DNA from: Methanoculleus sp.
GTDB taxonomy: Archaea > Halobacteriota > Methanomicrobia > Methanomicrobiales > Methanoculleaceae
Assembly: GCF_020696975.1 (NCBI RefSeq)
Contig: NZ_JAJGBK010000017.1
Span: 4,804 to 68,803, forward strand
Direction of reading: 5' to 3'
Length of the DNA stretch: 64,000 bases
Shown: positions 9,302 through 46,037 of the stretch, in pieces
How positions within the stretch are numbered: position 1 is the stretch's first letter
Layout: every line of letters begins with the position of its first letter
Program-made: the position numbers and the translations under genes
Notes under the pieces: generated by a model
The model's input: the letters and a program-made list of their open reading frames with translations, nothing else
The model's database searches: none
What the model was told of the DNA's origin: nothing

Positions 9302-9403
9302 TGCGGGCATACCTGAGAGGACAGGGCCGAGCCAGGCACCAACCCGCCGGGAGGCAGGGGTGAAGACCCGAAAATGGGTTCAGGAGCCAAAAAAAGGCAA
9401 CCT

Positions 9404-10642: not shown

Positions 10643-10699
10643 AGGTCTCCTCGAATAATTATATAGGTTAAAATGAATATAAAGTTGTTTGCGAGACTT

Positions 10700-26215: not shown

Positions 26216-26567
26216 GCAAGGAGTGGGAGGAGTAAGCCTCCTTCTGTTCTGTGCGGCATTCAGCTACGCGCCATACCTGGGCGGATACCAGACGATCCGT
26301 ATGCCCTATTCTGGCTTGCACCCGCAGGGGTTCACCGTTTCACCGTATCCCACCGCTACGTTCAACGAGTTATCGCGCGAAAGTTCGCGCTTCTCGCCTC
26401 CTTTACGGAGGCTCGGTCGTTTCATCACTGACGATGGGCCGTGTCGTTTCTGTGTCATTGCCGTGACTCTCGCCACCCGCACTTGCATGCGGCTGCGTGT
26501 CTGGCCGGTGGGAGGACTTTCCTCAGCAGCACAGGATGTGCCACCGTCGGCCGCACTCTCCCTCTCC
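26216..26567 (-). ncRNA. rnpB: RNase P RNA (archaeal type A)
   Basis: The minus strand carries universal motifs: GAGGAAAGUCC (CR-I; + strand ggactttcctc near 26513-26523), GGUGAAACGGUGAACC, GCAAGCC and ACAGAACAGAAGGAGGCUUAC (CR-IV/V; + strand gtaagcctccttctgttctgt near 26232-26252). The 5' GGAGAGGGAG and 3' CUCCUCCCACUCC ends can form P1. The end coordinates are approximate. Confidence 0.85.
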
Positions 26568-32202: not shown

Positions 32203-33063
32203 GTGAAGCAGTTGTATAAGATAGAAGCGGCGACCAAACTCGCCGACCGGGTTTATGAATACTGGATACGCGCGCCGCAGGTGGCGCAGCACGCGCGGGC
32301 AGGCCAGTTTGTCATCCTGCGCCTGCACGAGGCGGGCGAGCGCATACCCCTCACCATCTCCGCCGTCAGGGGAGACGCCGTTCGGGTGATCTTTATGACC
32401 GTCGGCAAGACGACCGAGGAGCTTGCGACGCTCCGTGCGGGCGACAGCATCAAGGATGTCGTGGGACCGCTCGGGAAACCGAGCGAGATTGAGAACTACG
32501 GCACCTGCTGCGTCATCGGCGGCGGTGTGGGGATCGCGAGCACGCCCCTCATCGCGAGGGAACTGAAAGAAGCCGGAAATCACGTTATCGGGATCATCGG
32601 GGCGCGCAGCGCCGATCTTCTCATCCTTGAGGACGAGATGAAGGAGATCTGTGACGACCTCTACATCACGACCGACGACGGGAGCAAGGGCGTTCACGGG
32701 TTTGCGGCCGACGTCCTGAAGAAACTGCTCGGCGAGCAAAAGATCGACCGGGTCTGGATCATCGGCCCTGCCATCATGATGAAGGTTACCTCCGGCGTGA
32801 CGGTGCCCTACGGTGTGAAGACTTACGTCAGCCTCAACCCGATCATGGTCGACGGGACGGGGATGTGCGGCTCCTGCCGGGTGACCGTCGCCGGGGAGAC
32901 GAAGTTCGCCTGCGTCGACGGTCCCGAATTCGACGCCCACCAGGTCGATTTTGTCGAACTGATGCAACGGCAGCGGATCTACACCGGGCAGGAGAAGGTC
33001 TCGCTTGAGCGGTTTGCGGAGCACCGGTGCCGGTGCGGCGAAGGGGGCCACCACCATGAGTGA
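32203..33063 (+). CDS. nfnA: NfnA/SudB-like FAD/[2Fe-2S] subunit (ferredoxin:NADP oxidoreductase / sulfide dehydrogenase small subunit)
   Basis: GQFVILRLHEAGERIPLTI and the C-terminal cluster motif GTGMCGSCRV...FACVDGPEF. GTG start. Confidence 0.85.
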   Translation: MKQLYKIEAATKLADRVYEYWIRAPQVAQHARAGQFVILRLHEAGERIPLTISAVRGDAVRVIFMTVGKTTEELATLRAGDSIKDVVGPLGKPSEIENYGTCCVIGGGVGIASTPLIARELKEAGNHVIGIIGARSADLLILEDEMKEICDDLYITTDDGSKGVHGFAADVLKKLLGEQKIDRVWIIGPAIMMKVTSGVTVPYGVKTYVSLNPIMVDGTGMCGSCRVTVAGETKFACVDGPEFDAHQVDFVELMQRQRIYTGQEKVSLERFAEHRCRCGEGGHHHE

Positions 33064-34402
33064 CCGGCCGGCTGACATCCGGGTCAAGGACTTCAGGGAG
33101 GTCGACTGCGGCCTCTCCGCCGACGAGGCTATCGCCGAAGCGGAGCGCTGCCTCCAGTGCAAGAAACCGCTCTGCGTCAGGGGCTGCCCGGTCGGCATCG
33201 ATATTCCCGCGTTTGTCCGCGAGGTTGCGGAGGGCAACTTCCCGGCAGCCGCACGGGCGCTCAAGGAACAGAACATGCTCCCCGCCATATGCGGGCGTGT
33301 CTGCCCGCAGGAGACCCAGTGCGAGGGCGTCTGCATCCTCGGCAACAAGGAGACCTCGATCCGGATCGGCGCGATCGAGCGGTTCGTGGCTGACTGGGAG
33401 CGGGGGAACGGCCCTGAGCTCCCTGAGGTGGCGAAGCCGACCGGGAAGCGTGTGGCGGTCGTGGGGTCCGGCCCGGCCGGGCTGACGGCCGCGGCCGAGC
33501 TCGCCCGTGCCGGCCACGCTGTCACGATCTTTGAGTCGCTCCACGAGGCCGGCGGTGTCCTGACCTACGGCATCCCTGCGTTCAGGCTCCCGAAGGATGT
33601 CGTCAGGGCGGAACTCGACCAGGTGCTCGCCCTCGGCGTCCGCTTAAAGAAGAACCATCTCGTGGGAAGGAGCGTCAGCGTGGACGAACTCCTCGGCTAC
33701 GACGCGGTCTTCCTCGCGACCGGCGCAGGGCTTCCCGCGTTCATGGGCATCCCCGGGGAGAACTTAAACGGTGTCTACTCAGCAAACGAATTCCTCACGA
33801 GGGTGAACCTGATGCACGCCGAGGCGTTCCCTGAGTTCGACACCCCGGTCCTGCATGGGGCGCGCGTCGCGGTGATCGGCGGCGGCAACGTCGCGATGGA
33901 CTCAGCCCGGGTGGCACGCCGCCTGGGTGCGAAGGTCTCGTTGATCTACCGGCGGGGTGAGGAAGAGATGCCGGCACGGAGGGCCGAGGTCGGGCACGCG
34001 AAGGAGGAGGGAATCGAGTTTTACACCTGCACGAACCCTACCCGGATCCTCGGCGAGCAGTGCTGCGTCACCGGTATCGAGTGCGTGAAGATGTCCCTCT
34101 GCGGCGTCGACGCGAGCGGCCGCCGGTCCCCGGAGCCGATCGAGGGGAGCGAGTTCATCCTCGACGTGGACATGGTCATCCAGGCGATCGGCACGAGCCC
34201 GAACCCGCTCCTCGTCTCCCTGATCCCGGGCCTCGAGCGCGGCCGGAGAGGCAACGTCGCCGTCGACAAGAACGGTCGGACGTCCATCCCCCACGTCTAC
34301 GCCGGCGGGGACATCGCCACCGGCGCCGCGACGGTGATCGAGGCGATGGGCTCGGCAAAACGCGCGGCGGCGGCGATCGGCGCGATGCTGAAAGAAGAGT
34401 AA
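33056..34402 (+). CDS. nfnB: NfnB/SudA/GltD-like NADPH-dependent oxidoreductase large subunit
   Basis: CLQCKKPLCVRGCPVGIDIP, ICGRVCPQETQCEGVC, VAVVGSGPAGLTAA, GGDIATGAATVI. The ATG at 33056 overlaps the nfnA stop. Confidence 0.9.
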   Translation: MSDRPADIRVKDFREVDCGLSADEAIAEAERCLQCKKPLCVRGCPVGIDIPAFVREVAEGNFPAAARALKEQNMLPAICGRVCPQETQCEGVCILGNKETSIRIGAIERFVADWERGNGPELPEVAKPTGKRVAVVGSGPAGLTAAAELARAGHAVTIFESLHEAGGVLTYGIPAFRLPKDVVRAELDQVLALGVRLKKNHLVGRSVSVDELLGYDAVFLATGAGLPAFMGIPGENLNGVYSANEFLTRVNLMHAEAFPEFDTPVLHGARVAVIGGGNVAMDSARVARRLGAKVSLIYRRGEEEMPARRAEVGHAKEEGIEFYTCTNPTRILGEQCCVTGIECVKMSLCGVDASGRRSPEPIEGSEFILDVDMVIQAIGTSPNPLLVSLIPGLERGRRGNVAVDKNGRTSIPHVYAGGDIATGAATVIEAMGSAKRAAAAIGAMLKEE

Positions 34403-34455
34403 ACTCATTTTTAGGGCGGGCCCGGAAGTTCTGCCCCGACAGAATCGGGTCCAGC
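34261..34455 (+). repeat. Direct repeat copy 1: 3' end of nfnB plus ~50 nt downstream
   Basis: Aligns collinearly with 37091-37275, by eye ~85% identical over the last 47 codons and stop. Similarity weakens after the stop. Confidence 0.75.
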
Positions 34456-34568
34456 CTATTCCCTACCTCGATGGTACGGGAAGTGCAGACCGGTCTCCTG
34501 CCTTCGGGCAGTCGCGCGGTGATTTTAACCGGCTTTTTGCAGGCACTGTGTGAAGGCAGGGGACCGGA

Positions 34569-35147
34569 TCAGTCGTCCTCCCTGCACCGGATCGCAATCG
34601 CGAGGAGGTTAAACCCGATCAGTGGCAATCCGACTGCCCAGTAGAGAGTGATGAGCCCGCTCCAGGGATGAAGTGTAGGCGAAGGCGAGAGAACGGTATC
34701 CTTCACGACACAGGCAAAGATGATGGCGGCAAAGATTACGATGCCCGCGATCGCCCGAAGAGGGACGAACGCCTTCGCCTTCAGGCGTTCCGGGAGAAGA
34801 TGGACGAAGGCCAGGGACGCCGGAGATAGCGCTGCAAGCAGGCCGATCCAGACGACCTCGATCTCGCTCACCGGGTCCGAAAGGAACGAGCTCCCATCGG
34901 GATAGATCAGGAAACTCACGACACCAAGGGCCGAGACGGTGCCCGGGAGCAGCAGGTCGAAGTACCGTGGTCTGGTCTCCTCCCGTGCCACCGGGATGAA
35001 CAAGAGGAGCCCGATAAGGGAGAGCCCGCTCAATACGGACGTTACTGCAGAGAACAGAGGGGTAAGCCCGGTGAACGGGGCGACCCAGAAGAAAAAGAAG
35101 ATGGTTGAAGCACACGCAAGCGATACGCTACAGAAGGGCGTTTTCAT
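34569..35147 (-). CDS. Polytopic membrane protein (about 6 TM), hypothetical
   Basis: Hydrophobic helices throughout. The start is taken at MKTPFCSVSL (35147) so it does not overlap the upstream hydrolase gene. Lower GC than the core. Confidence 0.5.
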   Translation of the reverse strand: MKTPFCSVSLACASTIFFFFWVAPFTGLTPLFSAVTSVLSGLSLIGLLLFIPVAREETRPRYFDLLLPGTVSALGVVSFLIYPDGSSFLSDPVSEIEVVWIGLLAALSPASLAFVHLLPERLKAKAFVPLRAIAGIVIFAAIIFACVVKDTVLSPSPTLHPWSGLITLYWAVGLPLIGFNLLAIAIRCREDD

Positions 35148-35172
35148 CGCATGGCCTCGAGGTTCCAGCGGT

Positions 35173-36624
35173 TCATCCGATATAGAGCGCAAACTCGCTG
35201 ATCTCACCTTCATCTCCTTCATATGTATCCACAACTCTCAGTTGCCAATCGTGAATAGCTGCAAAACTTTCTGCTCGAACACTGAGTATCAGGTGATCTG
35301 CACTTCCACCCTGATTGTCCCAGATCTGATATTCAGCGTACTCGTCCCACGCCTCTTCCTTCCACCCAAGCCAGATATCCAGATCGGCTATGTAGGTATG
35401 GTCGATCAGGATTGTGAACAACATACTGTCGGAACAGGCAACGCCATTAATATGAGCATACGATGTCTGATAATCGGTTATCGGAACCGAACTTGACCCG
35501 GCTGTATCAGGAGATTCGGCCTTCGTCGAGTAAATGACCATTCCCATGGTCATCTTTTCCGTTTCTGATACGAGTATCCGTGTATAGTTGATGAGATTGG
35601 TATTTGTCCTCCAATTGAGATCGTAGTTCATAATCGTACAGATCGGCTCCAAATACTGATGAGACCATGCTGCAAAAGTTTTTGCATCTTCTGAGGGGTC
35701 GGTGATGATGTAGTAGGTATCAACGTCGGTTGCATCTTCAAACAAATCTCCCCAATTTGATCCCACCCATTCTTCGTAGTCCAGATGGTGTGCCTGTCCC
35801 ACTACACTCGACGTGTGGAACGGGCAGCCGAGATCCTCAATATAGTGTAGTCCTTTGCCAAGATTGATGTATGCAGAGTCAGAGTCATAGTTTGCGAAGT
35901 CGCTTTTTGCTGCATCTATATAGTACTCGCAGGAGTATGGTCCTAAATTGTCACCCGGTAGCGGGAAATCCCAGATATAAACCCAGGAGTGACGATTAAG
36001 CGTTCCAGGGGGTACAATCCCAATAGGCTCCTCGCGATGAACATCAGCCCAGCCGCTGTAATTCCGGAGTGTATCAGTATGTACAGAGGAGGTATACCCC
36101 AAATTCTCCCCGGCTGTCCCTGAAAAGTGCCAATGGCCCGGAGAGCCTGCCCATTTCGGACCGATGAACTCTCCTTCCGTCGCTTCGACCATAAGGTACG
36201 ATAGTTGCAGGAGAATCTCTTTCTCTTCTTCCTCAGAAAGCGATGATTCACCTTCAAAGATGCTTCGCACCGTATTTTCAAATTGTTTCCTATCATCCGG
36301 AAGACCCCGGAGGAGCTCCCTGACGAACGCCCAATCCTCTTCAGTCGGCTTTAGTTGCTTTGCTGGGATTTCTTTCCAATCTGAAGGGATCGCAATCCCG
36401 TGCAGCAATTTTTTGTCGGCCTCCACAATCGGAGAAACCGTAACAGAGTCTGGTTGTATCAATTCAAGTGACAGTTCCTGATCTAGGGTGCAGCCGTCGT
36501 TTGCGCCCGTTTTACCCGGAGAGTTTTTCACACAATTTGCACTCACAGCCGGCACCATCGTTCCGCTCACCAGCAGTGCAACGAGGAGCATGGAAAGTGC
36601 CCGCATTCCAATGGTTTCTTTCAT
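35173..36624 (-). CDS. Secreted zinc phospholipase C / P1-nuclease-superfamily-like hydrolase with C-terminal proprotein-convertase P-domain
   Basis: Sec signal MKETIGMRALSMLLVALLVSGTMVPAVSA. Zinc-ligand spacing H-x3-D-x5-H (HYIEDLGCPFH), then HH-x3-E, at 35773-35847. C-terminal P-domain-like DHTYIADLDIWL...WQLRVVD...GEISEFALYI. Confidence 0.7.
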   Translation of the reverse strand: MKETIGMRALSMLLVALLVSGTMVPAVSANCVKNSPGKTGANDGCTLDQELSLELIQPDSVTVSPIVEADKKLLHGIAIPSDWKEIPAKQLKPTEEDWAFVRELLRGLPDDRKQFENTVRSIFEGESSLSEEEEKEILLQLSYLMVEATEGEFIGPKWAGSPGHWHFSGTAGENLGYTSSVHTDTLRNYSGWADVHREEPIGIVPPGTLNRHSWVYIWDFPLPGDNLGPYSCEYYIDAAKSDFANYDSDSAYINLGKGLHYIEDLGCPFHTSSVVGQAHHLDYEEWVGSNWGDLFEDATDVDTYYIITDPSEDAKTFAAWSHQYLEPICTIMNYDLNWRTNTNLINYTRILVSETEKMTMGMVIYSTKAESPDTAGSSSVPITDYQTSYAHINGVACSDSMLFTILIDHTYIADLDIWLGWKEEAWDEYAEYQIWDNQGGSADHLILSVRAESFAAIHDWQLRVVDTYEGDEGEISEFALYIG

Positions 36625-36918
36625 CTGTTTGCCTCCTCTAACGTCCCCGGAGGCAAAGAGGCACAACCTTAATGTACATGGAATGCGAACCACTCTTTCG
36701 CCTTCGGGCAGCGGGGGGCTCATCCGGCCTTGGACGGATAGGGTGAGCCTCCACGGTTTTGCGAACGCTGTTTTGAGCATCCGCATAAGGGGATAGACCC
36801 GGGCCTATATAGCATTTCTCTCACAATCATCTACATGTCCTTTGGCTGTTCGTGAAAATGAGACGATCGATCCTGCGACGGGGAGCACGGACACAGGAGG
36901 ATGGCTGTTCTCGCGGCG
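36538..36918 (-). repeat. Cassette copy A: shared upstream region + TATA + ~155-nt 5' leader + signal-peptide codons
   Basis: Near-identical to 39499-39879 and 43243-43622 by direct alignment. Confidence 0.85.
36803..36840 (-). promoter_or_regulatory. Promoter A: TATA (CTATATAG) plus degenerate upstream box ACATGTAGA
   Basis: Position is equivalent to promoters B, C and D. It is the most diverged copy of the ACGTGTAAA box. Confidence 0.4.
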
Positions 36919-37061
36919 AGGAAAATCATGCGGTCTGCGTCGCGGAAGCTACGCAATGGATCAGGAGTAGAAGTTCGAGCAGCCGTCGGGCTCTGCTGTG
37001 CGGCTTCTCCGCAGGGAAAGGAGTCGAAACGCCGAAAGGGTGACGTGCGACGATTCGTGAG

Positions 37062-37232
37062 TGCGACGAATGGAACGTCCGGGACATCGTCATCGACAAG
37101 GACGGTCGGACGTCCATCCCCCGCGTCTACACCGGCGGGGACATCGCCACCGGCGCGGCGACAGTGATCGAGGCGATGGGTTCGGCGAAGAAGGCGGCCG
37201 CGGCGATCGACGCGATGCTCCGGGAAGAATAA
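37062..37232 (+). pseudogene. Orphan 3' fragment of an nfnB/gltD-like gene (last ~55 codons plus stop)
   Basis: Translates to ...IDKDGRTSIPRVYTGGDIATGAATVIEAMGSAKKAAAAIDAMLREE*, compared with nfnB VDKNGRTSIPHVYAGGDIATGAATVIEAMGSAKRAAAAIGAMLKEE*. There is no upstream coding continuation. Confidence 0.75.
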
Positions 37233-37275
37233 ATTTTTTTCGGATCGGCCCGGGGACAAGGCCGGGTCCAACCCG
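37091..37275 (+). repeat. Direct repeat copy 2 of the nfnB 3' end
   Basis: See 34261-34455. Confidence 0.75.
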
Positions 37276-37410
37276 TTCTTCAGGTGTGCCGCCTGGAGGG
37301 GCGATGTTTCACCAAAGCGGAGTTCGAGCGGGATGCCCCCTCATGCCCGGATGGGCAGGCGCGCATGCCGGACAGGAGCGTTTGCAAAGGGCGTATCCGC
37401 CGCCCCGACC

Positions 37411-38271
37411 CTATCTCCGCTTCCGGTACAGGACGAAACTCATCCCTACGCCAAAAGCCGCGAGGATCGTTCCGAACCCCGGCGTCGTCGTCCGGAGCGA
37501 CTGCCCGGGCGCCAGGTCCGAGGGGATCTGCACGACGTCCGTCTCCCGACCGGCCCGAACGGTGATCTCCCAGACTATCCGGTCGCTGTCGTAGACTTTC
37601 AGCACGACGTTCTCGACGCAGGCGCCCGGAGACTGCCCGGAGAGGACCTGCGCCTCCGCTTCGGCTCTCCCGACCGTGAGGTTCTCTTCCGAGATGTAGG
37701 TGGTGGAGACGATCTCTCCTCCCGAGAGGTCGACGATGTACTCCGTGAACACGCCGGTATCGTTGATGAAGTAGACCTGCGCCCGAGAAGGTTTGGACGT
37801 GATCTCCTCATAGCGGTTGGGGGATTGATTCTCGACGTACGACCGCACCCCGCCGTCGTTGCTGAGCGCCGGGTACTTCGCAAAAATCTTCGGGAAGGTG
37901 AGTTCCGCGGCCAGGGGCAGCGCCTCATCGCAGCCGATAATCCAGATTTGCCCGATGGACTGTTCGCCGCCGTGTTCATCGGCTCTAATCTTGTTTAAAT
38001 AGACGAGCTGTTCTTCGCAGGCGTTCGCCGGCACGATGTACACGTACTCATGCGTGTGGTTGTACGTGCTCTCATGCCACCAGATCTCCCCATGTTCAGC
38101 GATGAATGCGGTGATCGTCTCGTTGGTCTTCGCGTTCGGGTGAACCCCAAACAGAATTCCCGTCTGGTTTCCCTGCCCAGGGAGAGGCGTCACGACCGCA
38201 TCTGCGGGTATGCTGCAGACAAGCACCGCAAGGATGAGACCGAGCATCAGAAGGACAACGCTTTTCGACAT
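37411..38271 (-). CDS. Exported surface protein with PGF-CTERM archaeal sorting signal (possible PepSY-like module)
   Basis: N-terminal signal MSKSVVLLMLGLILAVLVCSIPADA. C-terminal TTPGFGTILAAFGVGMSFVLYRKRR (PGF + TM + basic tail). The segment RAEAEAQVL...VENVVLKVYDSDRIVWEITV looks PepSY-like by eye. Lies 10 nt downstream of the transglutaminase-like gene. Confidence 0.7.
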   Translation of the reverse strand: MSKSVVLLMLGLILAVLVCSIPADAVVTPLPGQGNQTGILFGVHPNAKTNETITAFIAEHGEIWWHESTYNHTHEYVYIVPANACEEQLVYLNKIRADEHGGEQSIGQIWIIGCDEALPLAAELTFPKIFAKYPALSNDGGVRSYVENQSPNRYEEITSKPSRAQVYFINDTGVFTEYIVDLSGGEIVSTTYISEENLTVGRAEAEAQVLSGQSPGACVENVVLKVYDSDRIVWEITVRAGRETDVVQIPSDLAPGQSLRTTTPGFGTILAAFGVGMSFVLYRKRR

Positions 38272-38280
38272 AAAAAAGGG

Positions 38281-39585
38281 TTAGTTATACCTCGGAACCT
38301 CTCCGAGGAGAATCTGCGTTCTGAAATCTTCGTACCTGAGAATGCCATCGCCGGTTGGGTCGTTCGGGTCCTGCGTGTAATAGGAGTCATCGGCGTCACC
38401 GTAGATGGTGATGTTGATGTGGTTGTTTCCCGCTGCCCTGTAAACCTGGGGATTGTCAAATACATCCCATGTTGGATCCGAGTGGATCCAGGCATTTCCA
38501 TTCCATGATTCTGCAATAGCATGCCCTGTTATATTACCGGAAGGCAGTTCCATGGTGAACGATAGGAATCGCGTCGGGATGCCCAGTGCGCGGGTGAAGG
38601 CGGTATACAGGGTCCCATACTCATCGCAGACCCCTTGATATTTTCCGTTTATGGGAGACGGATGGTCTAGGGTATACAGATCAGAAAATATATACTCAAC
38701 GTACATTGTTTCGTTATTATATTCCATCATATCATGAACCCGTTGCATTATTTCGTAGGCAGACTGATACGGCTCTGTCGTACCATCAGCTGCCTGCGCT
38801 GCTTCGAGTAACACCCTATATCCCTCACTGAATGGGAAATGATATAGATCACTTGTCTCGAGGTTTTCTCCGCCGTCAGGATCGAAGAGATGCGCCGCAT
38901 CGTTGTTATACTTTTCTATGGCATCGATCGGCATTCTTGCCATCCACGACGTAAGGCCGGTCGGATCAACTCTGATCTCGACTGCCATCGGTTTTATTCC
39001 GATGGAACTGTGCTGTGGGAGAACCTCGAATGGAACCGTCACAGTGAGGTCCGCTCCCGCTGCAAGATCCGAGAAGGGTACACCACACCCATACCCATCC
39101 TTAAGCGACCAGAGGATGACCATCCCGCTCGCTGCAGAAGAAGCATAGTTATGAATCGTGATCTCGTGGTAGACAAATGTGTCCTGTGTCCAGTACCAGG
39201 AGATAGTTCCCTGGGTCATCCTCACGTCCGGCATTAAATCCCTGGTGCCGAGGTCACTGCTCTCGGTTTGCAGCGTCAATGATACTTTACCGGGAGAGGT
39301 TGGAACTATGTCTGCATCGATTACCGGGAATTCTGATTCTCTCTTCGGATCTAGAATGATTACTCCGGGGTGCTGCCGTGCGATCTCCTCAGTGATCGGA
39401 ACCCTCTGCGGGGTTTCAATGACCGGAGTATACTTCGACATATCCCTTGGCTCAACCCACTGGTCGAACGTATCGAGCCAGCCCCTTGATTCATTCTCTG
39501 CACTCACCGCCGGCACCATCGTTCCGCTCACCAGCAATGCAGCGAGAAGCATGGAAAGTGCCCGCGGTCCAATTGTTTCTTTCAT
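38281..39585 (-). CDS. Secreted transglutaminase-like cysteine protease superfamily protein
   Basis: Signal MKETIGPRALSMLLAALLVSGTMVPAVSA. Core Cys-His-Asp motif GVCDEYGTLYTAFTRALGIPTRFL...GHAIAESW...WIHSDPTWD. Confidence 0.75.
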   Translation of the reverse strand: MKETIGPRALSMLLAALLVSGTMVPAVSAENESRGWLDTFDQWVEPRDMSKYTPVIETPQRVPITEEIARQHPGVIILDPKRESEFPVIDADIVPTSPGKVSLTLQTESSDLGTRDLMPDVRMTQGTISWYWTQDTFVYHEITIHNYASSAASGMVILWSLKDGYGCGVPFSDLAAGADLTVTVPFEVLPQHSSIGIKPMAVEIRVDPTGLTSWMARMPIDAIEKYNNDAAHLFDPDGGENLETSDLYHFPFSEGYRVLLEAAQAADGTTEPYQSAYEIMQRVHDMMEYNNETMYVEYIFSDLYTLDHPSPINGKYQGVCDEYGTLYTAFTRALGIPTRFLSFTMELPSGNITGHAIAESWNGNAWIHSDPTWDVFDNPQVYRAAGNNHINITIYGDADDSYYTQDPNDPTGDGILRYEDFRTQILLGEVPRYN

Positions 39586-39879
39586 CTGTTTGCCTCCTCT
39601 AACGTCCCCGGAGGCAAAGAGGCACAGTTCTTAAGTACAGGGAGTGCAAATCTATCTCTTGCCTTCGGGCAGTGGGGGGGCTCATCCGGTCTTGGACGGA
39701 TAGGGTGAGCCTCCACGGTTTTGCGAACGCTGTTTTGAGCATCCGCACAAGGAGATAGGCATCAAGCCATTTATGTTTTCTGTCCTTTTTCTTTACACGT
39801 CCATCGGCTGTTTGCGAAAATGAGGCATTCGGTCTCATCCTGAAGGATGCAGGTGCAGGAGAACGAATATTCTCGCGGC
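39499..39879 (-). repeat. Cassette copy B: shared upstream region + TATA + 5' leader + signal-peptide codons
   Basis: Direct alignment with copies A and C. Confidence 0.85.
39765..39802 (-). promoter_or_regulatory. Promoter B: GGACGTGTAAAGAAAAAGGACAGAAAACATAAATGG (box + TATA)
   Basis: The ACGTGTAAA box and GACAGAA half-site sit immediately upstream of a TATA-like element. The arrangement is shared with C and D. Confidence 0.45.
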
Positions 39880-39946
39880 AAGGAAGGTCGTGCAAGGTAC
39901 GCCAGTCGATCCGGGCGGACGGGCATCACCGGATCCGGCGCTCCAT

Positions 39947-40969
39947 CTATCCCCAGAAGAGCATCCAGACCCCGAATCCTATCAACAGGATCCCGCTTCC
40001 CGCTCGAATAACATCCCTGTACTCCCGTATCCTGCTTGACGAGGCATATCCCCCGAGGACTCCGACGCCGAAAAACGGCGTGAGCACCCCGGCTCCGAAG
40101 ACCAGCAGGAGCGATAGATCCTGCACAGTGCCGCCGATCAGGATTTTGTTCAACAGAATGAGGAGCATCGGTGCGGCACACGGAGCCTTGACGATCGAGA
40201 ACACCATGCCCAGAACGAACAACCCGGCAAGGGTGGTCGCGTGCTTCTGTATGGATGACTTAACGTAGTCGTCGGTGGAGATCGGGAGCCGTATCAACCC
40301 GAGCAGGTTCACCCCGGCGAGTATCGTGATCAGTCCCGCCGCGACGGTGAGGTACGGACCGAAGCCGCCGAGGGACATCCCCGCCAGCAGGAAGCAGCAT
40401 CCCATGACGATATACGCAGCGACCAGCCCCAGGCCGAATATCAACGAGTTCAGGAGACTGCTCCTCAGCCCGTTGCCCGACCCGGTGACGTAGGCCAGTA
40501 TGAATCCAAGGATTGCCATCAGGCAGGGCGAGAACCCGGAAAAAAGACCCAGGGAGTATGCAAGCGGAATGTCCCAGTTTATCGGCGGCGAGTTCTCCTG
40601 CAGCTCAGCGCCGGCAAGAGACCGCTCGATCGCCGCCCTGAGGTTCTCTTCGGTGATCTCCTCTTTGGGAATTGTGACGGTGCCGTCCACGACCACGGCC
40701 GGGATTTCGAGAAATTCGTATGCGTTCCATCGCTCCCACCCGTCTGGTGTATTGACGTCAATTTCTTCCACGTTCAAGGTGGAACCATAGGCCCCCTTCA
40801 GGTCGGCAATAATCGGATAGGTTAATTCGCACTCAGAACAGCGAGATGTATGAAAATATTCTACGTGAATAACAGATGCACCGGCGAGGGGGATTAACCC
40901 GATGAGGACCATCGCAACCGCGACGGCAACTATGTTATTCGTTAACCGGTGAATCATGAAATCAGCCAT
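39947..40969 (-). CDS. Thioredoxin-like (CxxC) domain fused to CcdA/DsbD-family thiol-disulfide membrane transporter
   Basis: N-terminal TM, then HTSRCSECELTYPII (CxxC). The CcdA core has conserved Cys in GFSPCLMAIL and VKAPCAAPML. Confidence 0.8.
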   Translation of the reverse strand: MADFMIHRLTNNIVAVAVAMVLIGLIPLAGASVIHVEYFHTSRCSECELTYPIIADLKGAYGSTLNVEEIDVNTPDGWERWNAYEFLEIPAVVVDGTVTIPKEEITEENLRAAIERSLAGAELQENSPPINWDIPLAYSLGLFSGFSPCLMAILGFILAYVTGSGNGLRSSLLNSLIFGLGLVAAYIVMGCCFLLAGMSLGGFGPYLTVAAGLITILAGVNLLGLIRLPISTDDYVKSSIQKHATTLAGLFVLGMVFSIVKAPCAAPMLLILLNKILIGGTVQDLSLLLVFGAGVLTPFFGVGVLGGYASSSRIREYRDVIRAGSGILLIGFGVWMLFWG

Positions 40970-41273
40970 TTGTTCGTGAATTCCCACCGGGGAAATACAC
41001 TCGAATCAGTATCTTCATGCCCGACGTATGCATCCGATTCCTTCAGAGAAGGTTCAATCGCAATGAAAATCACCCTTTAGGTGGTCATGGGAATTTTTTG
41101 GGGCGAAATAATGAATTGCCTGCTTGTCTGTTTTCGTACGTTTTCGCTGTGCTCATCGACAAACCAAGAGGTATAATCCGTCGATTACTATGTCTTGGTT
41201 CTCGTCCATGGCAGGAAATGAAGATAATCGACGATGCTTCCGTACCTTACACAGGAAAAAGGCACATGCGATT

Positions 41274-42011
41274 TCACGTTTTCTTGCCCCGGAGGACCAG
41301 CAATGCTCCTAATACCCCAATGATACCAGTATGAAGACCGAATCCCGGAACTTCCTGGCCTGACGGTTCCAATTCCAGGTCAAGTTCGTTCGTCAGATTT
41401 CCAAAGACAATCTTGCGCTGGAGGGGCTGGTAGCCCTCTTTCTGAACGATGATGGTCTGATCGTACCCGATCGCGTTTTCGATCAGATACCTGCCATCTC
41501 TTCCGGTTGTGTTTGTCACCGAGAAGATTTCATCATCCAGCGCAAATCTCATCTCAAATCTCACAGATGCATTGGGAATCGGGTTGCCTTCAGGGTCTGT
41601 CACCCTGCCCGAAACGGTGATCGCCGGCGGCGGAGGGATTCCAGTGTGCCTGGTCACGTTCAGAGTTTTTTCCGCTCGGTTTCCGAGGTTATCGGTCGCT
41701 ATGACCGTGATTCTGTTCTTCCCCGTAGAGACCGGCACGGAGCATGCGAACTTCGTCTCGTTCCCGCATGAAACCTCCCCTACCCCGCTTTGAACAACCA
41801 CGCTCCGTATGCCGGAAGGGGCATCGGCCTCGCCGATAACCACAACGTGAGGCGGAACGACATCGATCCAAACTTCATCACCGTCATTCGGGGAGATGAT
41901 TGTAAGATTTATCGGTTCCCCGATGGAAGCCGTATTTTCAGATGGAAGGCCCGAGCAGACTGCAGGATACGCGATAATCGCTAGTATGGCAACAATCAAA
42001 GATATGCGCAT
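41274..42011 (-). CDS. Exported Ig-like + carboxypeptidase-regulatory-like domain protein with PGF-CTERM anchor
   Basis: Signal MRISLIVAILAIIAYPAVCSG. ITVSGRVTDPEGNPIPNASV (CarboxypepD_reg-like). C-terminal EVPGFGLHTGIIGVLGALLVLRGKKT. Lies 19 nt downstream of the metalloprotease gene. Confidence 0.7.
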   Translation of the reverse strand: MRISLIVAILAIIAYPAVCSGLPSENTASIGEPINLTIISPNDGDEVWIDVVPPHVVVIGEADAPSGIRSVVVQSGVGEVSCGNETKFACSVPVSTGKNRITVIATDNLGNRAEKTLNVTRHTGIPPPPAITVSGRVTDPEGNPIPNASVRFEMRFALDDEIFSVTNTTGRDGRYLIENAIGYDQTIIVQKEGYQPLQRKIVFGNLTNELDLELEPSGQEVPGFGLHTGIIGVLGALLVLRGKKT

Positions 42012-42030
42012 TACCAATCCCGTCCAAAAA

Positions 42031-43329
42031 TTAGGCTGAGGGGCCCCACGGCGTGCCGTCGAGCGGGTCGAGAATTCCATCATTGTCATAATCGCCCCAA
42101 CCGATGAACCGCCTGCTGGATGTGCTTATCGTCGATGTTTTGTAAGGATCCCTCATAACACTGTTGGTTGACGAAGGGCACGAAACATGATTTGTATTTG
42201 TATACATATCGTGCATCGGGCTGACAGCAAGAATACTGGACTGTCCGCAGGAACTTGCTCCAGCATATTCGTCAAGGGCACCGTAGAGGTGCAATGATTC
42301 GTGTTCATAACTGCCAGGCTGCGAAGCGAATCTTCCGGATGATGATCTACCCCAGTATGAAATCGCAGTTTTATCTGCATAACCTTGGTCAGGACCCACC
42401 GCATAACCGCCCATGTCGTCATGTGTTAGGTAGAGAAGTATGACGGTATCTGCTCCGGACCAACTTTTTGCCGATCTCGCCATGTCATCTGTTGTTCTTC
42501 CATCGCCATTGCTGTCAGAGTAGCCAAGATTTCTTGCTGCTTCTTCCATCCATCCATTTACACCCCAGGCATGGATGTTATCGCCAGTATTTGCTCCAGA
42601 AACGGTTACAGTATAATAACCGCCATCGTTGACAGCGTTGGCACCCGAAGGCGCTTGTTGGCGAATTGCATTTGTTCCGGAATATGCATCACTCAATGCA
42701 TCATCTCGATCCGCCACGGTCCATGCTCCATCGCTGCTTTGGGTTTGGAAGTTAGTGATTAAATACAAATAGTACATTTTTCCATGTGCATAGGGTGCTG
42801 ACTGAGTGCCGGGAGGAATATAGTCCTGAATCCGGTTATCTGGCGCAAAGGTCCCGCCATGATAATTTTGATGATCTTTCACAAGCTGCTCTCTGTGTGA
42901 TCGGATAAATCGATCCGTCTCATCGGCATCAAACCCTAAAACGAGCCCTAGATCTTTCCCAAATTTGTCCAGGTCTGATATGTAATAGTAACGATGATCT
43001 ACATCATAATACCTGATCAACACCTGCTTTTCAAGAATTTGTGAGTATTCCTTGATCTCCTCTTCAGATATACCCCAATTCAACTTTTCATTCCAATAAC
43101 TCAGATAGACTACCGTATTATCGATGATCACTCCATCATCATGTTCCATGAGATGCAATGATTCCGCATCCGGCGGTACAAGCTGCTCCGGTACAGGCAC
43201 ATCAATGCCAATGATGTTTGTGTTTTCACTTTTTCCTTCGCTCGCACTCACTGCCGGCACAACACCCGCGCTCACCAGCAGTACGGCGAGGAGCGCGGAG
43301 AGTGCTCGCATTCCAATGGTTCCATTCAT
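42031..43329 (-). CDS. Secreted zinc metalloprotease (metzincin-like, HExxHxxGxxD)
   Basis: Signal MNGTIGMRALSALLAVLLVSAGVVPAVSA. HESLHLYGALD at 42271-42303. Downstream SVMRDPY is a Met-turn candidate. C-terminal DYDNDGILDPLD is a Ca-binding-like repeat. Confidence 0.7.
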   Translation of the reverse strand: MNGTIGMRALSALLAVLLVSAGVVPAVSASEGKSENTNIIGIDVPVPEQLVPPDAESLHLMEHDDGVIIDNTVVYLSYWNEKLNWGISEEEIKEYSQILEKQVLIRYYDVDHRYYYISDLDKFGKDLGLVLGFDADETDRFIRSHREQLVKDHQNYHGGTFAPDNRIQDYIPPGTQSAPYAHGKMYYLYLITNFQTQSSDGAWTVADRDDALSDAYSGTNAIRQQAPSGANAVNDGGYYTVTVSGANTGDNIHAWGVNGWMEEAARNLGYSDSNGDGRTTDDMARSAKSWSGADTVILLYLTHDDMGGYAVGPDQGYADKTAISYWGRSSSGRFASQPGSYEHESLHLYGALDEYAGASSCGQSSILAVSPMHDMYTNTNHVSCPSSTNSVMRDPYKTSTISTSSRRFIGWGDYDNDGILDPLDGTPWGPSA

Positions 43330-43622
43330 TTGTTTTTCCTCCTGTAATGTTCCCGGAGGCAGAAGAGGCACACCCTTAAGTACATGGAATGCGAACCACT
43401 CTTTCGCCTTCGGGCAGTAGGGGGTTCACCCGGCCTTGCACGGATGGGGTGAGCCTCCGCGGTTTTGCGAACGCTATTCCAAGCATCCACACAAGGACAT
43501 GGGCGTCGATCTATTTAGAAATTCTGTCAGATTCATTTACACGTTCGCGGATATTTGCCGAAAGTGAACGGAGAGAACCCTCCCCGGAAGACGAGGGCAC
43601 AGGAGAGAACCTATTCTCACGG
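43243..43622 (-). repeat. Cassette copy C: shared upstream region + TATA + 5' leader + signal-peptide codons
   Basis: Direct alignment with copies A and B. Confidence 0.85.
43510..43546 (-). promoter_or_regulatory. Promoter C: GAACGTGTAAATGAATCTGACAGAATTTCTAAATAG (box + TATA)
   Basis: Same box/half-site/TATA layout as B and D. Confidence 0.45.
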
Positions 43623-43816: not shown

Positions 43817-44509
43817 ATGAAAAAGAGCCAGATTGTCATCTGGAGCATCCTCATCGCTCTCGTCTTCGTGCATTATTTCTACATGCCCGAGCAGCCCGAG
43901 ATCACCAAGGGAGAGATGCATATCTCTTTTGACTCCCGGGAGTGCCGACCCGACCTGGTTGACCTCTGGAATACGCTTGTACAGGAGCAGGCGTTTTCGA
44001 ACGAGTCGGCCGTGCTCATCCAGCTGAACCAGCATATCAACAAAGACGGAACAGTGCAGTGCACCGAACTCCACTGGATCGGCTACGTAGACGGGGAGGA
44101 GCACGCGTACGAGGTATATGTCCACCAGAGCGGCAACATATATTATAACGACCAGATATTTGACTTCCCCATACAGGGGGTACATCCCCTCGCCATATTA
44201 CGCGAGGTCGACAGGATCGAGTTTGACGATCTTATTCACGGAGAATACAACATAACGCTCACGACGTTCAAACACGACGGTCCAATGACCTACAACAGAA
44301 CCAACGGCGACCTGTACGCCTTCGCGGACGGATCACTCCGTTCCCTGAGGGAGGCCACGTTCTCTTCCGAAGCATCCCGGCATATGATCGAGATCTTCCC
44401 GGAGATCGGGCAGTCGGGCGAGATTACGACCGCAGAGAGCATATCGGATCGCATCATCCTCTTCCCCGAACAGGAGATCGCCCGGGCCGACTCCGTCGTC
44501 CACGCATGA
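43817..44509 (+). CDS. N-terminally membrane-anchored hypothetical protein
   Basis: 230 aa with TM IVIWSILIALVFVHYFY. Protein-like composition, unlike the antisense ORF 43511-44185. The segment VDGEEHAYEVYVHQSGNIYYND is faintly PepSY-like. Confidence 0.5.
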   Translation: MKKSQIVIWSILIALVFVHYFYMPEQPEITKGEMHISFDSRECRPDLVDLWNTLVQEQAFSNESAVLIQLNQHINKDGTVQCTELHWIGYVDGEEHAYEVYVHQSGNIYYNDQIFDFPIQGVHPLAILREVDRIEFDDLIHGEYNITLTTFKHDGPMTYNRTNGDLYAFADGSLRSLREATFSSEASRHMIEIFPEIGQSGEITTAESISDRIILFPEQEIARADSVVHA

Positions 44510-44613: not shown

Positions 44614-45387
44614 TCAGATACCGGTACCGGACACACGCCCCCCGGGGATCGCAGGCTTCCACGATCCGTGGGCTTGTACATACTCTTTCGCATCGGCGCA
44701 GAGATAGTAGCGTACGAACCGTCCTTTCTTCTCGTCTCTGACAATACTGTCCCGGAGCAGCGGTTTCATATGCCAGGTGACGTTCGCGCCCGACATCATG
44801 AGCCGGGACGCGATCTCTTTTCTCGTGCTTCCCGGATGTTGCAAAACGATATTGAGTATCCGACTCTTTGACTGCTCGTTGAGATATCCCGCCACCTTTC
44901 GTTCCAGATCGGGACAGGCGCCCGTGTCGGCGTAATATCTCATACCACTGCAGTTCGGCTCGGGGACGACCGTTCCCATCCTGCATAACATCTCTACGTG
45001 GTAGCGGAGGGTTCCGATATTCATCTCGAGCAACCGGGAGAGAGATCTTGTATTTATCCCCGGATTATCGCGTATGCACAGGTACGCTGCATTCCGGGTT
45101 TCGTTCTCAAGGACGTTATTTTGCAGGACCCTCTTATGGCCGAAATGCAGCCATGCGAGTAGCGAGAATACAAGCTGCATCGGGACAAAGAGCACCGGAA
45201 CGAATATGGATACGAGTCCGAGAATAACAATATCCAGGGGGATATTCCAGACGTACACCGGCATCGGATCCAAAGGCACCCTCTCCGGATATGCGTCCTG
45301 AACGATAGTAGCACATGCGGCAGACGGCAGCAGTGCGAGGCAGAGGATGGCCAGAGCGATTCCGGCAATCCGCACTCGCACGACCAT
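44614..45387 (-). CDS. Membrane-tethered transcriptional regulator with two winged-helix (ArsR/MarR-like) domains
   Basis: Signal/TM MVVRVRIAGIALAILCLALL plus a second TM VILGLVSIFVPVLFVPMQLVF. Then two wHTH-like units: NAAYLCIRDNPGINTRSLSRLLEMNIGTLRYHVEML and RILNIVLQHPGSTRKEIASRLMMSGANVTWHMKPL. TTTTTATT ~27 nt upstream of the ATG suggests a leaderless mRNA. Confidence 0.7.
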   Translation of the reverse strand: MVVRVRIAGIALAILCLALLPSAACATIVQDAYPERVPLDPMPVYVWNIPLDIVILGLVSIFVPVLFVPMQLVFSLLAWLHFGHKRVLQNNVLENETRNAAYLCIRDNPGINTRSLSRLLEMNIGTLRYHVEMLCRMGTVVPEPNCSGMRYYADTGACPDLERKVAGYLNEQSKSRILNIVLQHPGSTRKEIASRLMMSGANVTWHMKPLLRDSIVRDEKKGRFVRYYLCADAKEYVQAHGSWKPAIPGGRVSGTGI

Positions 45388-45470
45388 GGATTTATATAAA
45401 ATCGGTGTCAATAAAAAGATTTGGTTTGGTAGGTGTTCGGCTTTGTTGAAAGCGTGTGAGAGGTAATCAT

Positions 45471-46037
45471 TTAAGCATAAGCATTGCAATTCAAAATATA
45501 CGGAATGGTTTCTGTCACACTCTCTCCATACACTTCAATTCTCCAGGTACCTGATGCAGGGCTGCTTATATCTACGCGGATCCGTCCATCCAGACGTCCG
45601 CCATAATTGTCATGGTACGAACCATACAGGCCCCCATCCGGTCTGTAGATCTCCAATTCCAGGGAGTGGTCCGGGGTAAACCAGTTTAAGTCGACATTCA
45701 GTAAGGACATACCGGCTGGTACATTGAGCAGATGAGTATCAGTCTCCCCCTGTGTGATCGTAAAATACTCACGGGTTCCGTACCCGTCCGCCTGCGAGAG
45801 AAGTCCCGCGACTCCGTCATTTTCGTTTCCGATACCTGTAGCTGAAACCACCGGCACGATGAAGGCGACGACGGCCAGAAGCCTATAATGCGACTGATCT
45901 TCATCAGAATCTACCGATGAGACATCAGTAGACCTCCGTATAAAAATTCTGTCCAATTTCTTTACACGTTTTATATACGCAAGCATTACGTCGATCTCGG
46001 CGCGTGAAAGATCGCCCGAGCGTCTCCGGAATAGCAC
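45471..46037 (-). CDS. Membrane-anchored or secreted protein with pre-peptidase C-terminal (PPC)-like domain
   Basis: Hydrophobic segment YRLLAVVAFIVPVVSATG. PPC-like GETDTHLLNVPAGMSLLNVDLNW...LELEIYRPDG...GTWRIEVYG. The start is uncertain because cassette-type promoter D lies inside the 5' part of the ORF. Confidence 0.5.
   Translation of the reverse strand: MLFRRRSGDLSRAEIDVMLAYIKRVKKLDRIFIRRSTDVSSVDSDEDQSHYRLLAVVAFIVPVVSATGIGNENDGVAGLLSQADGYGTREYFTITQGETDTHLLNVPAGMSLLNVDLNWFTPDHSLELEIYRPDGGLYGSYHDNYGGRLDGRIRVDISSPASGTWRIEVYGESVTETIPYILNCNAYA
45937..45971 (-). promoter_or_regulatory. Promoter-like element D: AAACGTGTAAAGAAATTGGACAGAATTTTTATAC
   Basis: Best match to the B/C box + half-site + TATA layout, but located within ORF 45471-46037. 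Confidence 0.35.

Follow-up and report, generated by a model that had tools for sequence, protein, structure and literature searches.

Bacterial polymorphic effector–immunity loci, such as the Tle–Tli and Tae–Tai pairs of the type VI secretion system (T6SS) and CdiA-CT/CdiI with its orphan modules, encode a hydrolase followed by a small cognate envelope protein. The same arrangement is found three times in a row in the DNA studied here, a stretch of 64,000 nucleotides (nt) from Methanoculleus sp. (NCBI RefSeq assembly GCF_020696975.1, contig NZ_JAJGBK010000017.1, positions 4,804 to 68,803 of the forward strand), which we call the window and whose own numbering is used below. Between positions 34569 and 43329, genes for a phospholipase C, a transglutaminase-fold enzyme and a metalloprotease are each followed by the gene of a cell-bound protein (partners 1, 2 and 3, respectively). 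The initial annotation of this array had read it as a possible arsenal of secreted effectors with their immunity proteins or of zymogens with their inhibitors. All six of its open reading frames (ORFs) are present on the minus strand with unchanged coordinates, and the gaps between the stop codon of each enzyme and the start of its partner (25 nt from 35173 to 35147, 9 nt from 38281 to 38271, and 19 nt from 42031 to 42011) agree to 1 nt with the 10–26 nt reported earlier. We tentatively read the locus as a Sec-dependent polymorphic arsenal of the effector/immunity type, a reading towards which the circumstantial evidence of the genes leads us close to, if not quite to, even confidence.

The likeness to bacterial polymorphic toxin loci includes a conserved 5′ or N-terminal part joined to a variable payload, recombinational replacement between strains, enzyme remnants left with intact partners, and a place in variable regions with conflict genes. 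Unlike the bacterial toxins, however, the enzymes of the window are exported by a plain Sec signal peptide and not by a dedicated system for injection or contact. Two of them, the phospholipase and the metalloprotease, have pro-domains; selection on the whole genes is purifying, and the host is an archaeal methanogen. What the modules have in common is a 5′ untranslated region (UTR) plus a signal peptide, in contrast to the large delivery domain of the toxins, and their toxicity and immunity are putative.

Two-gene units of a hydrolase and a specific non-catalytic protein are also represented by the lipase–Lif foldase pairs of Pseudomonas and Burkholderia, staphopain–staphostatin and streptopain–Spi. 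Lif has one transmembrane (TM) segment and a large periplasmic domain, and the staphostatins and Spi are cytoplasmic, whereas the partners in the window are extracytoplasmic PGF-anchored or six-TM proteins; searches of Pfam, NCBIfam and PDB revealed no relation of them to the Lif, staphostatin or Spi families. In its layout, the locus resembles integron cassette arrays, in which tandem modules are split by a repeat and whole modules are gained, lost and replaced at one site. Unlike in integrons, no integrase or attC site was seen in the region examined, the breakpoints lie in a leader repeat of ~300 nt and in a duplicated gene end, and every module of the window brings its own promoter and leader.

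Halocins and sulfolobicins are documented weapons of archaea. To these have been added an injection system of the contractile type in haloarchaea and, more recently, peptidoglycan hydrolases (PMC11566945, PMC12352652). The literature found on archaeal polymorphic toxins, on Methanoculleus transglutaminase and on HVO_0163 does not describe the modules of this locus.

Enzymes and partners of the three pairs

The phospholipase gene (35173–36624, minus strand) encodes a secreted protein whose catalytic domain had no Pfam match even at E ≤ 5, and the best match among PDB sequences (E 0.068) covered only the LHYxxDxxxPxH motif. Meanwhile, its AlphaFold model (pLDDT 83) matched the alpha-toxin of Clostridium perfringens in Foldseek with E 1.5e-8 and a probability of 1.0, and the phosphatidylcholine-specific phospholipases C (PC-PLC) of Bacillus cereus and Listeria with TM-scores of 0.56–0.62. 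The top structural matches were all phospholipases and none were P1/S1 nucleases; the identity in the structural alignments with solved phospholipases C (PLCs) was ~10–17%. The residues H164, D194, H212, H260, D264, H270, H280 and E284 are invariant in 22 of 22 family sequences, and W158 is kept in 19 of the 22. We take the nine zinc ligands of B. cereus PLC to be W1, H14, D55, H69, H118, D122, H128, H142 and E146; the ligands of the window protein show the same spacing, and the H118–E146 segment aligns to 1AH7, while the first four assignments follow the arrangement that we presume for this fold. By its modeled fold, the protein is a zinc phospholipase C, with hydrolysis of phospholipid head groups as its predicted activity, and it belongs to a divergent branch outside the Pfam family. 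As no Pfam model matched it, including Zn_dep_PLPC, we file it as a protein of the PLC fold and not as a member of that family.

The helical tri-zinc fold with all nine ligands is common to the window enzyme, alpha-toxin, B. cereus PC-PLC and Listeria PlcB. As in alpha-toxin, a beta-sandwich stands at the C-terminus, but this domain is similar to P-domains and carbohydrate-binding modules (CBM), with Foldseek matches to furin P-domains and CBM16, and not to PLAT. The signal peptide (residues 1–29) is followed by a pro-region of 128 aa (30–157), which the model shows as a confidently folded extra domain with a low-confidence linker (153–157) directly before Trp158, where the catalytic domain begins. 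In the PLC fold, as seen in B. cereus PLC, the alpha-amino group of the N-terminal Trp binds zinc, so that, by analogy, the window phospholipase must be made as a pro-enzyme. The pro-peptide before the Trp that becomes residue 1 and the metalloprotease encoded nearby recall Listeria, in which pro-PC-PLC (pro-PlcB) is activated by the metalloprotease Mpl (PMC2132530, PMC10576769). Unlike in the bacterial PLCs, the pro-region is far longer and folded; unlike Mpl, the window protease is metzincin-like and not thermolysin-like, and it is not consistently present together with the phospholipase. Only 38 clusters, none of them annotated, make up this family, which occurs in Methanomicrobiales, Methanosarcina and ANME-1. 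A tblastn search with the phospholipase in a plasmid collection gave no match.

Partner 1 (34569–35147, minus strand) is a membrane protein of 192 aa with about six hydrophobic segments and short loops. To our knowledge, no pairing with a six-TM protein is known for the bacterial zinc phospholipases C. A homologous multi-TM partner comes directly after the phospholipase gene in Methanosarcina (L001), in a metagenome-assembled genome (MAG) of Methanomicrobiales (L002/L003) and in locus L004. In a scan of metagenomes, 23 of the 25 evaluable phospholipase loci had a protein of 176–228 aa with 5–6 TM segments as the next gene, and these homologues of partner 1 start −35 to +42 nt from the phospholipase stop codon. 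The conserved residues of the family are structural only (RWYLxxPL, LLxPxS and YWxxxMPxIG); its alignment contains no conserved His, Asp, Glu or Cys pointing to catalysis.

The second enzyme (38281–39585, minus strand; 434 aa, secreted) matches Pfam Transglut_core (PF01841) at E 7.6e-12, above the cut-off. C320, H355 and D370 are invariant in 20 of 20 family sequences. Among solved structures, 3ISR comes closest (E 6e-6), which is itself a putative cysteine protease of the transglutaminase-like kind; the comparison with PDB sequences also gave a faint similarity to PNGase. From its sequence family, we conclude that it is a Cys-His-Asp enzyme of the transglutaminase fold and leave its reaction (protease, amidase or cross-linker) unassigned. 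In a phage collection, no match to it was found. Genomic loci of this enzyme number 28, and the downstream region is readable in 26; at every one of these 26, the enzyme gene is followed by one whose product has a signal peptide and is anchored at its C-terminus. These pairs come from Methanoculleus, Methanoregula, Methanolobus, Methanohalophilus, Methanosarcinaceae and Methanocellaceae, with enzyme identities down to ~30–45%. A pair 92% (enzyme) and 85% (partner) identical to that of Methanoculleus was also seen in a contig binned with an uncultured Spirochaetaceae bacterium (L016, CAYYEN010000160.1), which is probably a mis-binned archaeal contig.

Behind its signal peptide, partner 2 (37411–38271, minus strand; 286 aa) has a conserved N-terminal module of ~100 aa that belongs to no known family, then a C-terminal segment that varies and, last, a PGF-CTERM anchor (PF18204, 21.7 bits against a cut-off of 18.8). 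The N-terminal module is the conserved core of the family and is duplicated in some lineages. A profile of partner 2 gave only spurious transmembrane matches to cytochrome c1 in the PDB. The initial annotation had also seen a PepSY-like segment in partner 2 and had pointed to PepSY domains as protease inhibitors. The window protein had no match to PepSY (PF03413) even at E ≤ 5; two of 11 orthologues reached a best E of 0.011, which is below the threshold, and the segment is confined to long forms of partner 2 and absent from the short ones. PepSY was dropped as a defining feature after testing the window protein and the 11 orthologues, and with it falls, for this protein, the inhibitor argument built on it.

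The metalloprotease (42031–43329, minus strand) had no Pfam match (to E ≤ 5) and no PDB sequence match. The motif Y-x-H-E-x-x-H-x-x-G-A-x-D-E-Y is invariant in 20 of 20 family sequences and agrees with the zinc-binding pattern HExxHxxGxx(H/D), including its third ligand; a calcium-loop-like motif, GWGDYDxDGxxDP, is found at the C-terminus. In the model of the protein (pLDDT 72), a disordered linker (158–179) separates a helical pro-domain from the catalytic domain. Its Foldseek matches were weak (best E 1.3e-2, TM-scores 0.2–0.3), the top 20 being entries for pro-fragilysin, ADAM17/TACE, snake-venom metalloprotease, astacin and pappalysin, and one distant relative has sub-threshold Reprolysin_5/4 matches over the aligned region. 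These signs, weak but consistent, point to a secreted pro-metalloprotease of a divergent metzincin-like kind. At E ≤ 1e-3, a profile search collected 1,098 cluster representatives, and giant PKD/DUF3821 surface proteins are frequent among them. The pro-domain region (profile positions ~5–180) also matches many stand-alone proteins of 120–230 aa, such as P0205, P0207, P0214, P0220 and P0222, which may be either gene fragments or pro-domain-like proteins in free form.

Partner 3 (41274–42011, minus strand) has a signal peptide, an Ig-like domain (Glucodextran_B/Big_1 in Pfam), a CarboxypepD_reg domain and a C-terminal anchor of the PGF type, whose motif is visible although it scores 14 bits with TIGR04126 against a cut-off of 24.5. 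The metalloprotease and the CarboxypepD_reg partner are adjacent in seven of nine distinct loci from other genomes, in either gene order. The partner lies downstream in L006 (Methanofollis-like), L007/L008 (Methanolacinia), L035 and L066 (Methanoregula formicica), and directly upstream of FG-GAP- and PKD-extended metalloproteases in L069 and the contig of P0073. That the adjacency survives an inversion of the gene order is strong evidence of coupling. The two exceptions are L067, in which a metalloprotease of 34% identity is followed by other small genes, and P0095, in which the protease itself carries, by fusion, a C-terminal anchor and a weak CarboxypepD_reg-like domain, and a separate partner is lacking. 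A fusion of a C-terminal protease fragment with a full partner (P0091) was judged a likely gene-call or pseudogene artefact and given no weight. The third gene of this module in Methanoculleus and Methanofollis encodes a membrane protein with thioredoxin-like and DsbD_2 domains (39947–40987, minus strand). The order metalloprotease, partner, DsbD_2 is common to the window and L006.

The identities given to the enzymes in the initial annotation were upheld by fold for the phospholipase C, by Pfam for the transglutaminase, and by the HExxH motif and weak matches to metzincin folds for the metalloprotease. Since the catalytic residues are kept in all three families, the enzymes look catalytically competent. 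Pfam searches, which had been suggested as a check, found Transglut_core, the PGF-CTERM of partner 2 and CarboxypepD_reg. For the phospholipase, the metalloprotease and partners 1 and 2, Pfam and NCBIfam otherwise yielded trivial matches at most. The description of the partners held for the six-TM protein, the PGF-CTERM of partner 2 and the Ig/CarboxypepD_reg domains of partner 3; it did not hold for PepSY, and the PGF-CTERM of partner 3 stayed below the cut-off. The pairing itself is conserved over ~35–50% enzyme identity and across methanogen orders. Envelope genes generally tend to cluster, and a chance gathering of genes for secreted and membrane proteins could have been imagined. Yet the same partner family recurs across orders (23 of 25, 26 of 28 and 7 of 9 loci), most gaps fall between −44 and +81 nt, and the protease link outlasts the inversion of the genes. 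We find such a coincidence hardly credible and conclude, on this comparative evidence, that the pairs are real functional units.

The shared leader and the exchange of modules

All three enzyme genes start with near-identical signal peptides, MKETIGMRALSMLLxALLVSGTMVPAVSA. The similarity continues upstream, and leader and signal-peptide codons together form cassettes repeated over ~300 nt (36538–36838, 39499–39800 and 43244–43544). The leaders, all on the minus strand, occupy 36625–36852 (copy 1, before the phospholipase), 39586–39815 (copy 2, before the transglutaminase) and 43330–43558 (copy 3, before the metalloprotease). A TATA-like box ~185 nt before the ATG suggests a 5′ UTR of ~155 nt.

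For the analysis of the leader, 24 copies were aligned over ~170 nt. This stretch lies at 36625–36790, 39586–39751 and 43330–43495 of the window and is also present in L002, L005, L006, L011, L013–L015, L017, L024, L030, L031 and L033. The 5′ hairpin (P1) shows compensatory changes in four of its seven pairs (for example, GC in 12 and AU in 11 sequences), and its many G-U pairs favor an RNA structure over a DNA palindrome. A second hairpin, UGCC-CGRA-GGCA, is invariant, and a CCUCC has two possible pairing partners, the Shine-Dalgarno GGAGG 8–12 nt before the ATG and another GGAGG further upstream. By RNAalifold and pair counting, pairing was found in 96% of cells compared with 35–57% in slid controls. 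The invariant hairpin and the CCUCC/GGAGG helices hardly vary, and they fit the predicted structure without proving it. The leader is probably a structured 5′ UTR that resembles the expression platform of a riboregulator and may act at the RNA level. Rfam gave nothing at the gathering threshold and only two chance snoRNA-type matches at E ≤ 1 in the region. A hammerhead-like reading of GAUGAG...GAAAG in the leader was dropped because of its wrong stem geometry and the lack of Rfam support.

A hidden Markov model (HMM) of the leader (230 nt), searched over the collected loci, found the leader many times in loci of Methanoculleus, in as many as four copies at one locus, and its 3′ core also upstream of the metalloprotease of L006 and of the phospholipase genes of L002–L004. 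Among 28 non-redundant complete leaders, 26 precede an ORF with a signal peptide, and in 23 of the 25 evaluable cases the protein encoded next, −44 to +81 nt away, has hydrophobic anchor segments. The leader heads at least eight families of secreted proteins. They include a second, shorter type of phospholipase C with its own six-TM partner, a reprolysin-like M12 peptidase and several of no known family; a subtilase follows a partial leader copy. The partners of these other enzymes are small, mostly anchored by a lipobox or TM segment, and have no known domains. A further 18 clusters (P0154–P0171; mostly 249–295 aa, one of 498 aa, several named Methanoculleus) match the transglutaminase query only over its N-terminal 10–20%, which shows a wide reuse of the signal-peptide cassette.

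At the site of the window, related strains carry one, two or three modules. A nucleotide comparison showed that L024 equals the window minus 34462–37080 and minus 39801–43243. The first of these segments, the phospholipase module, is bounded by a direct repeat of 157 nt with 85% identity on the plus strand: the 3′ end (34254–34410) of a gltD-like gene (33005–34402, plus strand; Fer4_20 and Pyr_redox_2 domains) and a duplicated remnant of it (37084–37240), a scar of insertion or recombination. The second, which contains the metalloprotease, its partner and the DsbD-like gene, ends precisely at a cassette of leader and signal peptide on either side, those of leaders 2 and 3. In addition, a partial fourth leader core with the UGCC-CGAA-GGCA hairpin (34472–34536, minus strand; nhmmer E 1e-4, HMM positions 124–183 only) lies between the gltD stop codon and the 3′ end of the six-TM gene with no gene behind it, and is probably a recombination scar.

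Other strains differ in further ways. In L009, whose transglutaminase is 100% identical, the pair lies between gltD and a gltD remnant, and upstream of the transglutaminase is the junction (gltD remnant, ~230 nt, leader) that the window has at its own remnant, 37084–37240. Since duplicates of the gltD 3′ end flank different modules in L009 and the window, this end appears to be a recurrent point of recombination or insertion. The order in L010 is gltD, partner 2 with the transglutaminase, and DsbD, and the DsbD-like gene adjoins the leader both there and in L037. In L011, the leader beside the gene of a 230-aa protein drives an unrelated protein of 264 aa and not the metalloprotease, while L005 has the transglutaminase pair at another chromosomal site, beside HEPN/nucleotidyltransferase genes. 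The order in L037 is DsbD, leader, phospholipase and six-TM partner, then directly partner 2, with no transglutaminase, which indicates that the phospholipase module replaced the transglutaminase. Only the 3′ third of the transglutaminase gene is left in L030, L031 and L035, and L033 has a broken copy; partner 2 is intact in each of them. An intact partner 2 thus stands beside a truncated, broken or replaced enzyme in five loci, and the reverse case was found in none. L031 and L001 have partners in tandem duplication or fusion, and in L001 two copies of partner 1 are fused.

As judged from these alignments, the pairs are modules that are added, removed or replaced by recombination at the leader cassette and at the duplicated gltD end. 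The repeats at the module boundaries favor homologous recombination over an integrative element. An element with a tRNA target was also considered and dropped, as the window contains no tRNA genes and no integrase was seen in the region examined.

The distribution of the modules also bears on a possible zymogen cascade, in which the metalloprotease would remove the pro-peptides of the phospholipase and the transglutaminase, as Mpl does with pro-PlcB (PMC2132530, PMC10576769), and the partners would serve as inhibitors or timers. The long pro-region of the phospholipase with its low-confidence linker just before Trp158 and the pro-domain of the protease itself suit such a cascade, and the three enzymes are probably co-expressed given their common leader. 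However, L024 has only the transglutaminase pair, L005 has this pair elsewhere in the chromosome without the other two modules, the phospholipase module of L037 stands alone with no transglutaminase, and the phospholipase pairs of L001, L002 and L004 have no such protease nearby. Moreover, the tight partner of each enzyme is not a protease. As the modules are distributed independently, a cascade cannot be the reason for the pairs, though it might operate where the modules occur together; as an account of the locus, we consider it improbable. The earlier idea of zymogens and inhibitors has to be revised accordingly: pro-domains do exist, but they belong to the phospholipase and the metalloprotease themselves, and with folded pro-domains of their own these enzymes would not require a separate inhibitor for latency.

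Function of the pairs

We explain the locus best as a strain-variable array of three self-contained operons, each with a Sec-secreted hydrolase and its cognate non-catalytic envelope protein. The first operon encodes a latent pro-phospholipase C and the six-TM protein, the second the transglutaminase-fold enzyme and the PGF-CTERM protein, and the third a latent metzincin-like pro-protease, the PGF-anchored Ig/CarboxypepD_reg protein and a DsbD-like exporter of reductant. The cassette of ~300 nt would give them common regulation, probably together with the adjacent membrane-bound helix-turn-helix (HTH) regulator, and offers homologous recombination a site at which modules can be inserted, deleted and swapped. 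In the effector/immunity reading, each partner would bind its own enzyme at the surface of the producer and so protect it, while the released enzymes may attack membranes or surface proteins of neighboring cells.

The resemblance to polymorphic effector–immunity loci, proposed from the outset, finds support in the adjacency of the genes, the polymorphism between strains, the replacement of modules and the orphan partners, but not in the selection pattern. Duplicated or fused partners, and the toxin-antitoxin and defense genes near modules in L005, L066 and L067, likewise count in its favor, circumstantially. Gene-wide dN/dS is purifying for the enzymes (0.07–0.17) and the partners (0.23–0.33) and not diversifying, so that dN/dS as a test for an arms race yielded no positive evidence. 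Meanwhile, the dN/dS of orphan partner 2 among four Methanoculleus orphans (0.24–0.33) is the same as that of paired copies, as would suit immunity proteins. The six-TM, loop-poor partner 1, which has no catalytic residues and would be a poor anchor, also counts towards an immunity-like role.

Several further points weigh against this reading. The dS of enzyme and partner differs within the same strain pair, so the genes appear to be mosaic and not strictly co-inherited. The Ig/CarboxypepD_reg architecture of partner 3 is typical of surface stalk or adhesion proteins, and the P0095 fusion suits anchoring better than immunity. Judging from the models, two of the enzymes already have latency from their pro-domains. 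The orphan partners may stem from recent enzyme loss, and their numbers are small. It is also hard to picture how a six-TM protein with short loops would keep a soluble lipase off an entire membrane, and the present data lend no support to archaeal ether lipids or S-layers as substrates of the enzymes.

Some of these points are explained better if the modules are cell-surface exoenzyme kits, a reading close to the anchoring or restraining partners that the initial annotation had also named. Here the partner would tether its enzyme to the producer's surface as an anchor or scaffold, or would assist its folding and maturation like the lipase-specific foldases, and the enzymes would serve for scavenging nutrients or phosphate or for remodeling the producer's own envelope. 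The enzymes have no anchor of their own and partners 2 and 3 have PGF-CTERM-type anchors; the anchored protease of P0095 does without a separate partner; and giant surface proteins with multiple domains are frequent among the relatives of the catalytic domain of the protease. The GWGDYDxDGxxDP motif could be a docking site, the DsbD-like gene suggests a need for extracytoplasmic maturation, and purifying selection acts on enzyme and partner alike. On the other hand, an anchor or chaperone is useless without its client, so the five intact partner 2 genes with no working enzyme adjacent, four of which were tested and still look selected, count against such kits. A six-TM protein with very short loops would be a poor docking platform, and proteases extended by PKD or FG-GAP domains have not lost their separate CarboxypepD_reg partner. 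In addition, the modules are accessory and strain-variable and not core, which is unexpected for envelope maintenance, and hydrogenotrophic methanogens, as we understand their physiology, have little obvious use for the bulk degradation of proteins or lipids. Exoenzyme kits are a quite possible explanation, which we nevertheless doubt more than we believe, and we keep the effector/immunity reading as our working view of the locus.

Surroundings and significance of the array

The G+C content, ~62% over the window, falls from ~62–66% to 50–58% between ~34.4 and 46.2 kb, that is, over the whole array. This low-GC stretch is flanked by housekeeping genes, the gltD-like oxidoreductase gene on one side and an Orn/Lys/Arg decarboxylase gene (47707–49986) on the other. 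The best protein matches, at 91–100% identity, are in Methanoculleus genomes and MAGs. Outside the array, an archaeal RNase P RNA gene (RF00373, 209 bits) was found at 26221–26566 on the minus strand.

Beside the metalloprotease module stand three genes, which encode a membrane-anchored protein of 230 aa (43817–44509, plus strand; its L002 homologue has an AF_1575 Pfam match), a membrane-anchored double winged-helix protein with an HVO_0163-type HTH and HTH_24, which is a candidate regulator of the modules (44614–45489, minus strand), and a secreted PPC-domain protein (45471–46037, minus strand). The end of the PPC-protein gene overlaps the start of the regulator gene, and the two are presumably co-transcribed. 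The trio recurs beside modules in L002/L003, L011, L018, L024, L026, L029, L030 and L067, and this recurrence in distant genomes suggests a dedicated sensor/regulator set. The transglutaminase pair and the trio, both inside the low-GC array, are syntenic across several Methanoculleus species.

In other genomes, HEPN/nucleotidyltransferase and HicAB toxin-antitoxin pairs, as well as defense-type genes (SIR2_2, AAA_15/21 ATPases and KAP NTPase), lie directly around homologous modules. They were seen in L005 (8465–9455), L066 (261–921, 3632–4274 and 7445–8145), L067 (1–2608 and 9014–11287) and the contig of P0073. In the Methanoregula formicica locus (L066), the metalloprotease pair is flanked by two more pairs of an enzyme and a smaller protein encoded downstream, at 1515–3418 (377 and 260 aa) and 8702–10654 (a Peptidase_C39_2 protein of 401 aa and one of 239 aa). 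These extra pairs suggest that the pair architecture reaches beyond the leader-bearing genes of Methanoculleus.

A wider proposal would be that Methanomicrobiales and their relatives possess a hitherto undescribed Sec-dependent polymorphic system of exo-effectors and immunity proteins, in which at least eight hydrolase families (phospholipases C, a transglutaminase-fold enzyme, two metalloprotease types, a subtilase and unknowns), each with an envelope immunity protein, are exchanged via the leader cassette, co-induced by a new structured 5′ UTR riboregulator and a membrane HTH sensor, and used in antagonism among the archaea and bacteria of anaerobic communities. In this full form, we regard the proposal as rather unlikely.

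On a conservative reading, the locus contains several things for which neither annotation nor literature was found: a divergent archaeal branch of zinc phospholipase C paired with a six-TM protein, a metzincin-like family of ~1,100 cluster representatives, two partner families, and a candidate structured RNA leader on many genes for secreted proteins. It is also a clear natural example of module shuffling via a shared leader/signal-peptide sequence. Little is known about how archaea, and methanogens especially, compete or interact with their neighbors. If the effector/immunity reading is true, no arsenal of this kind would have been known before in methanogens; it would leave the cell by the ordinary Sec route and could shape the dynamics of strains in anaerobic digesters, sediments and guts.

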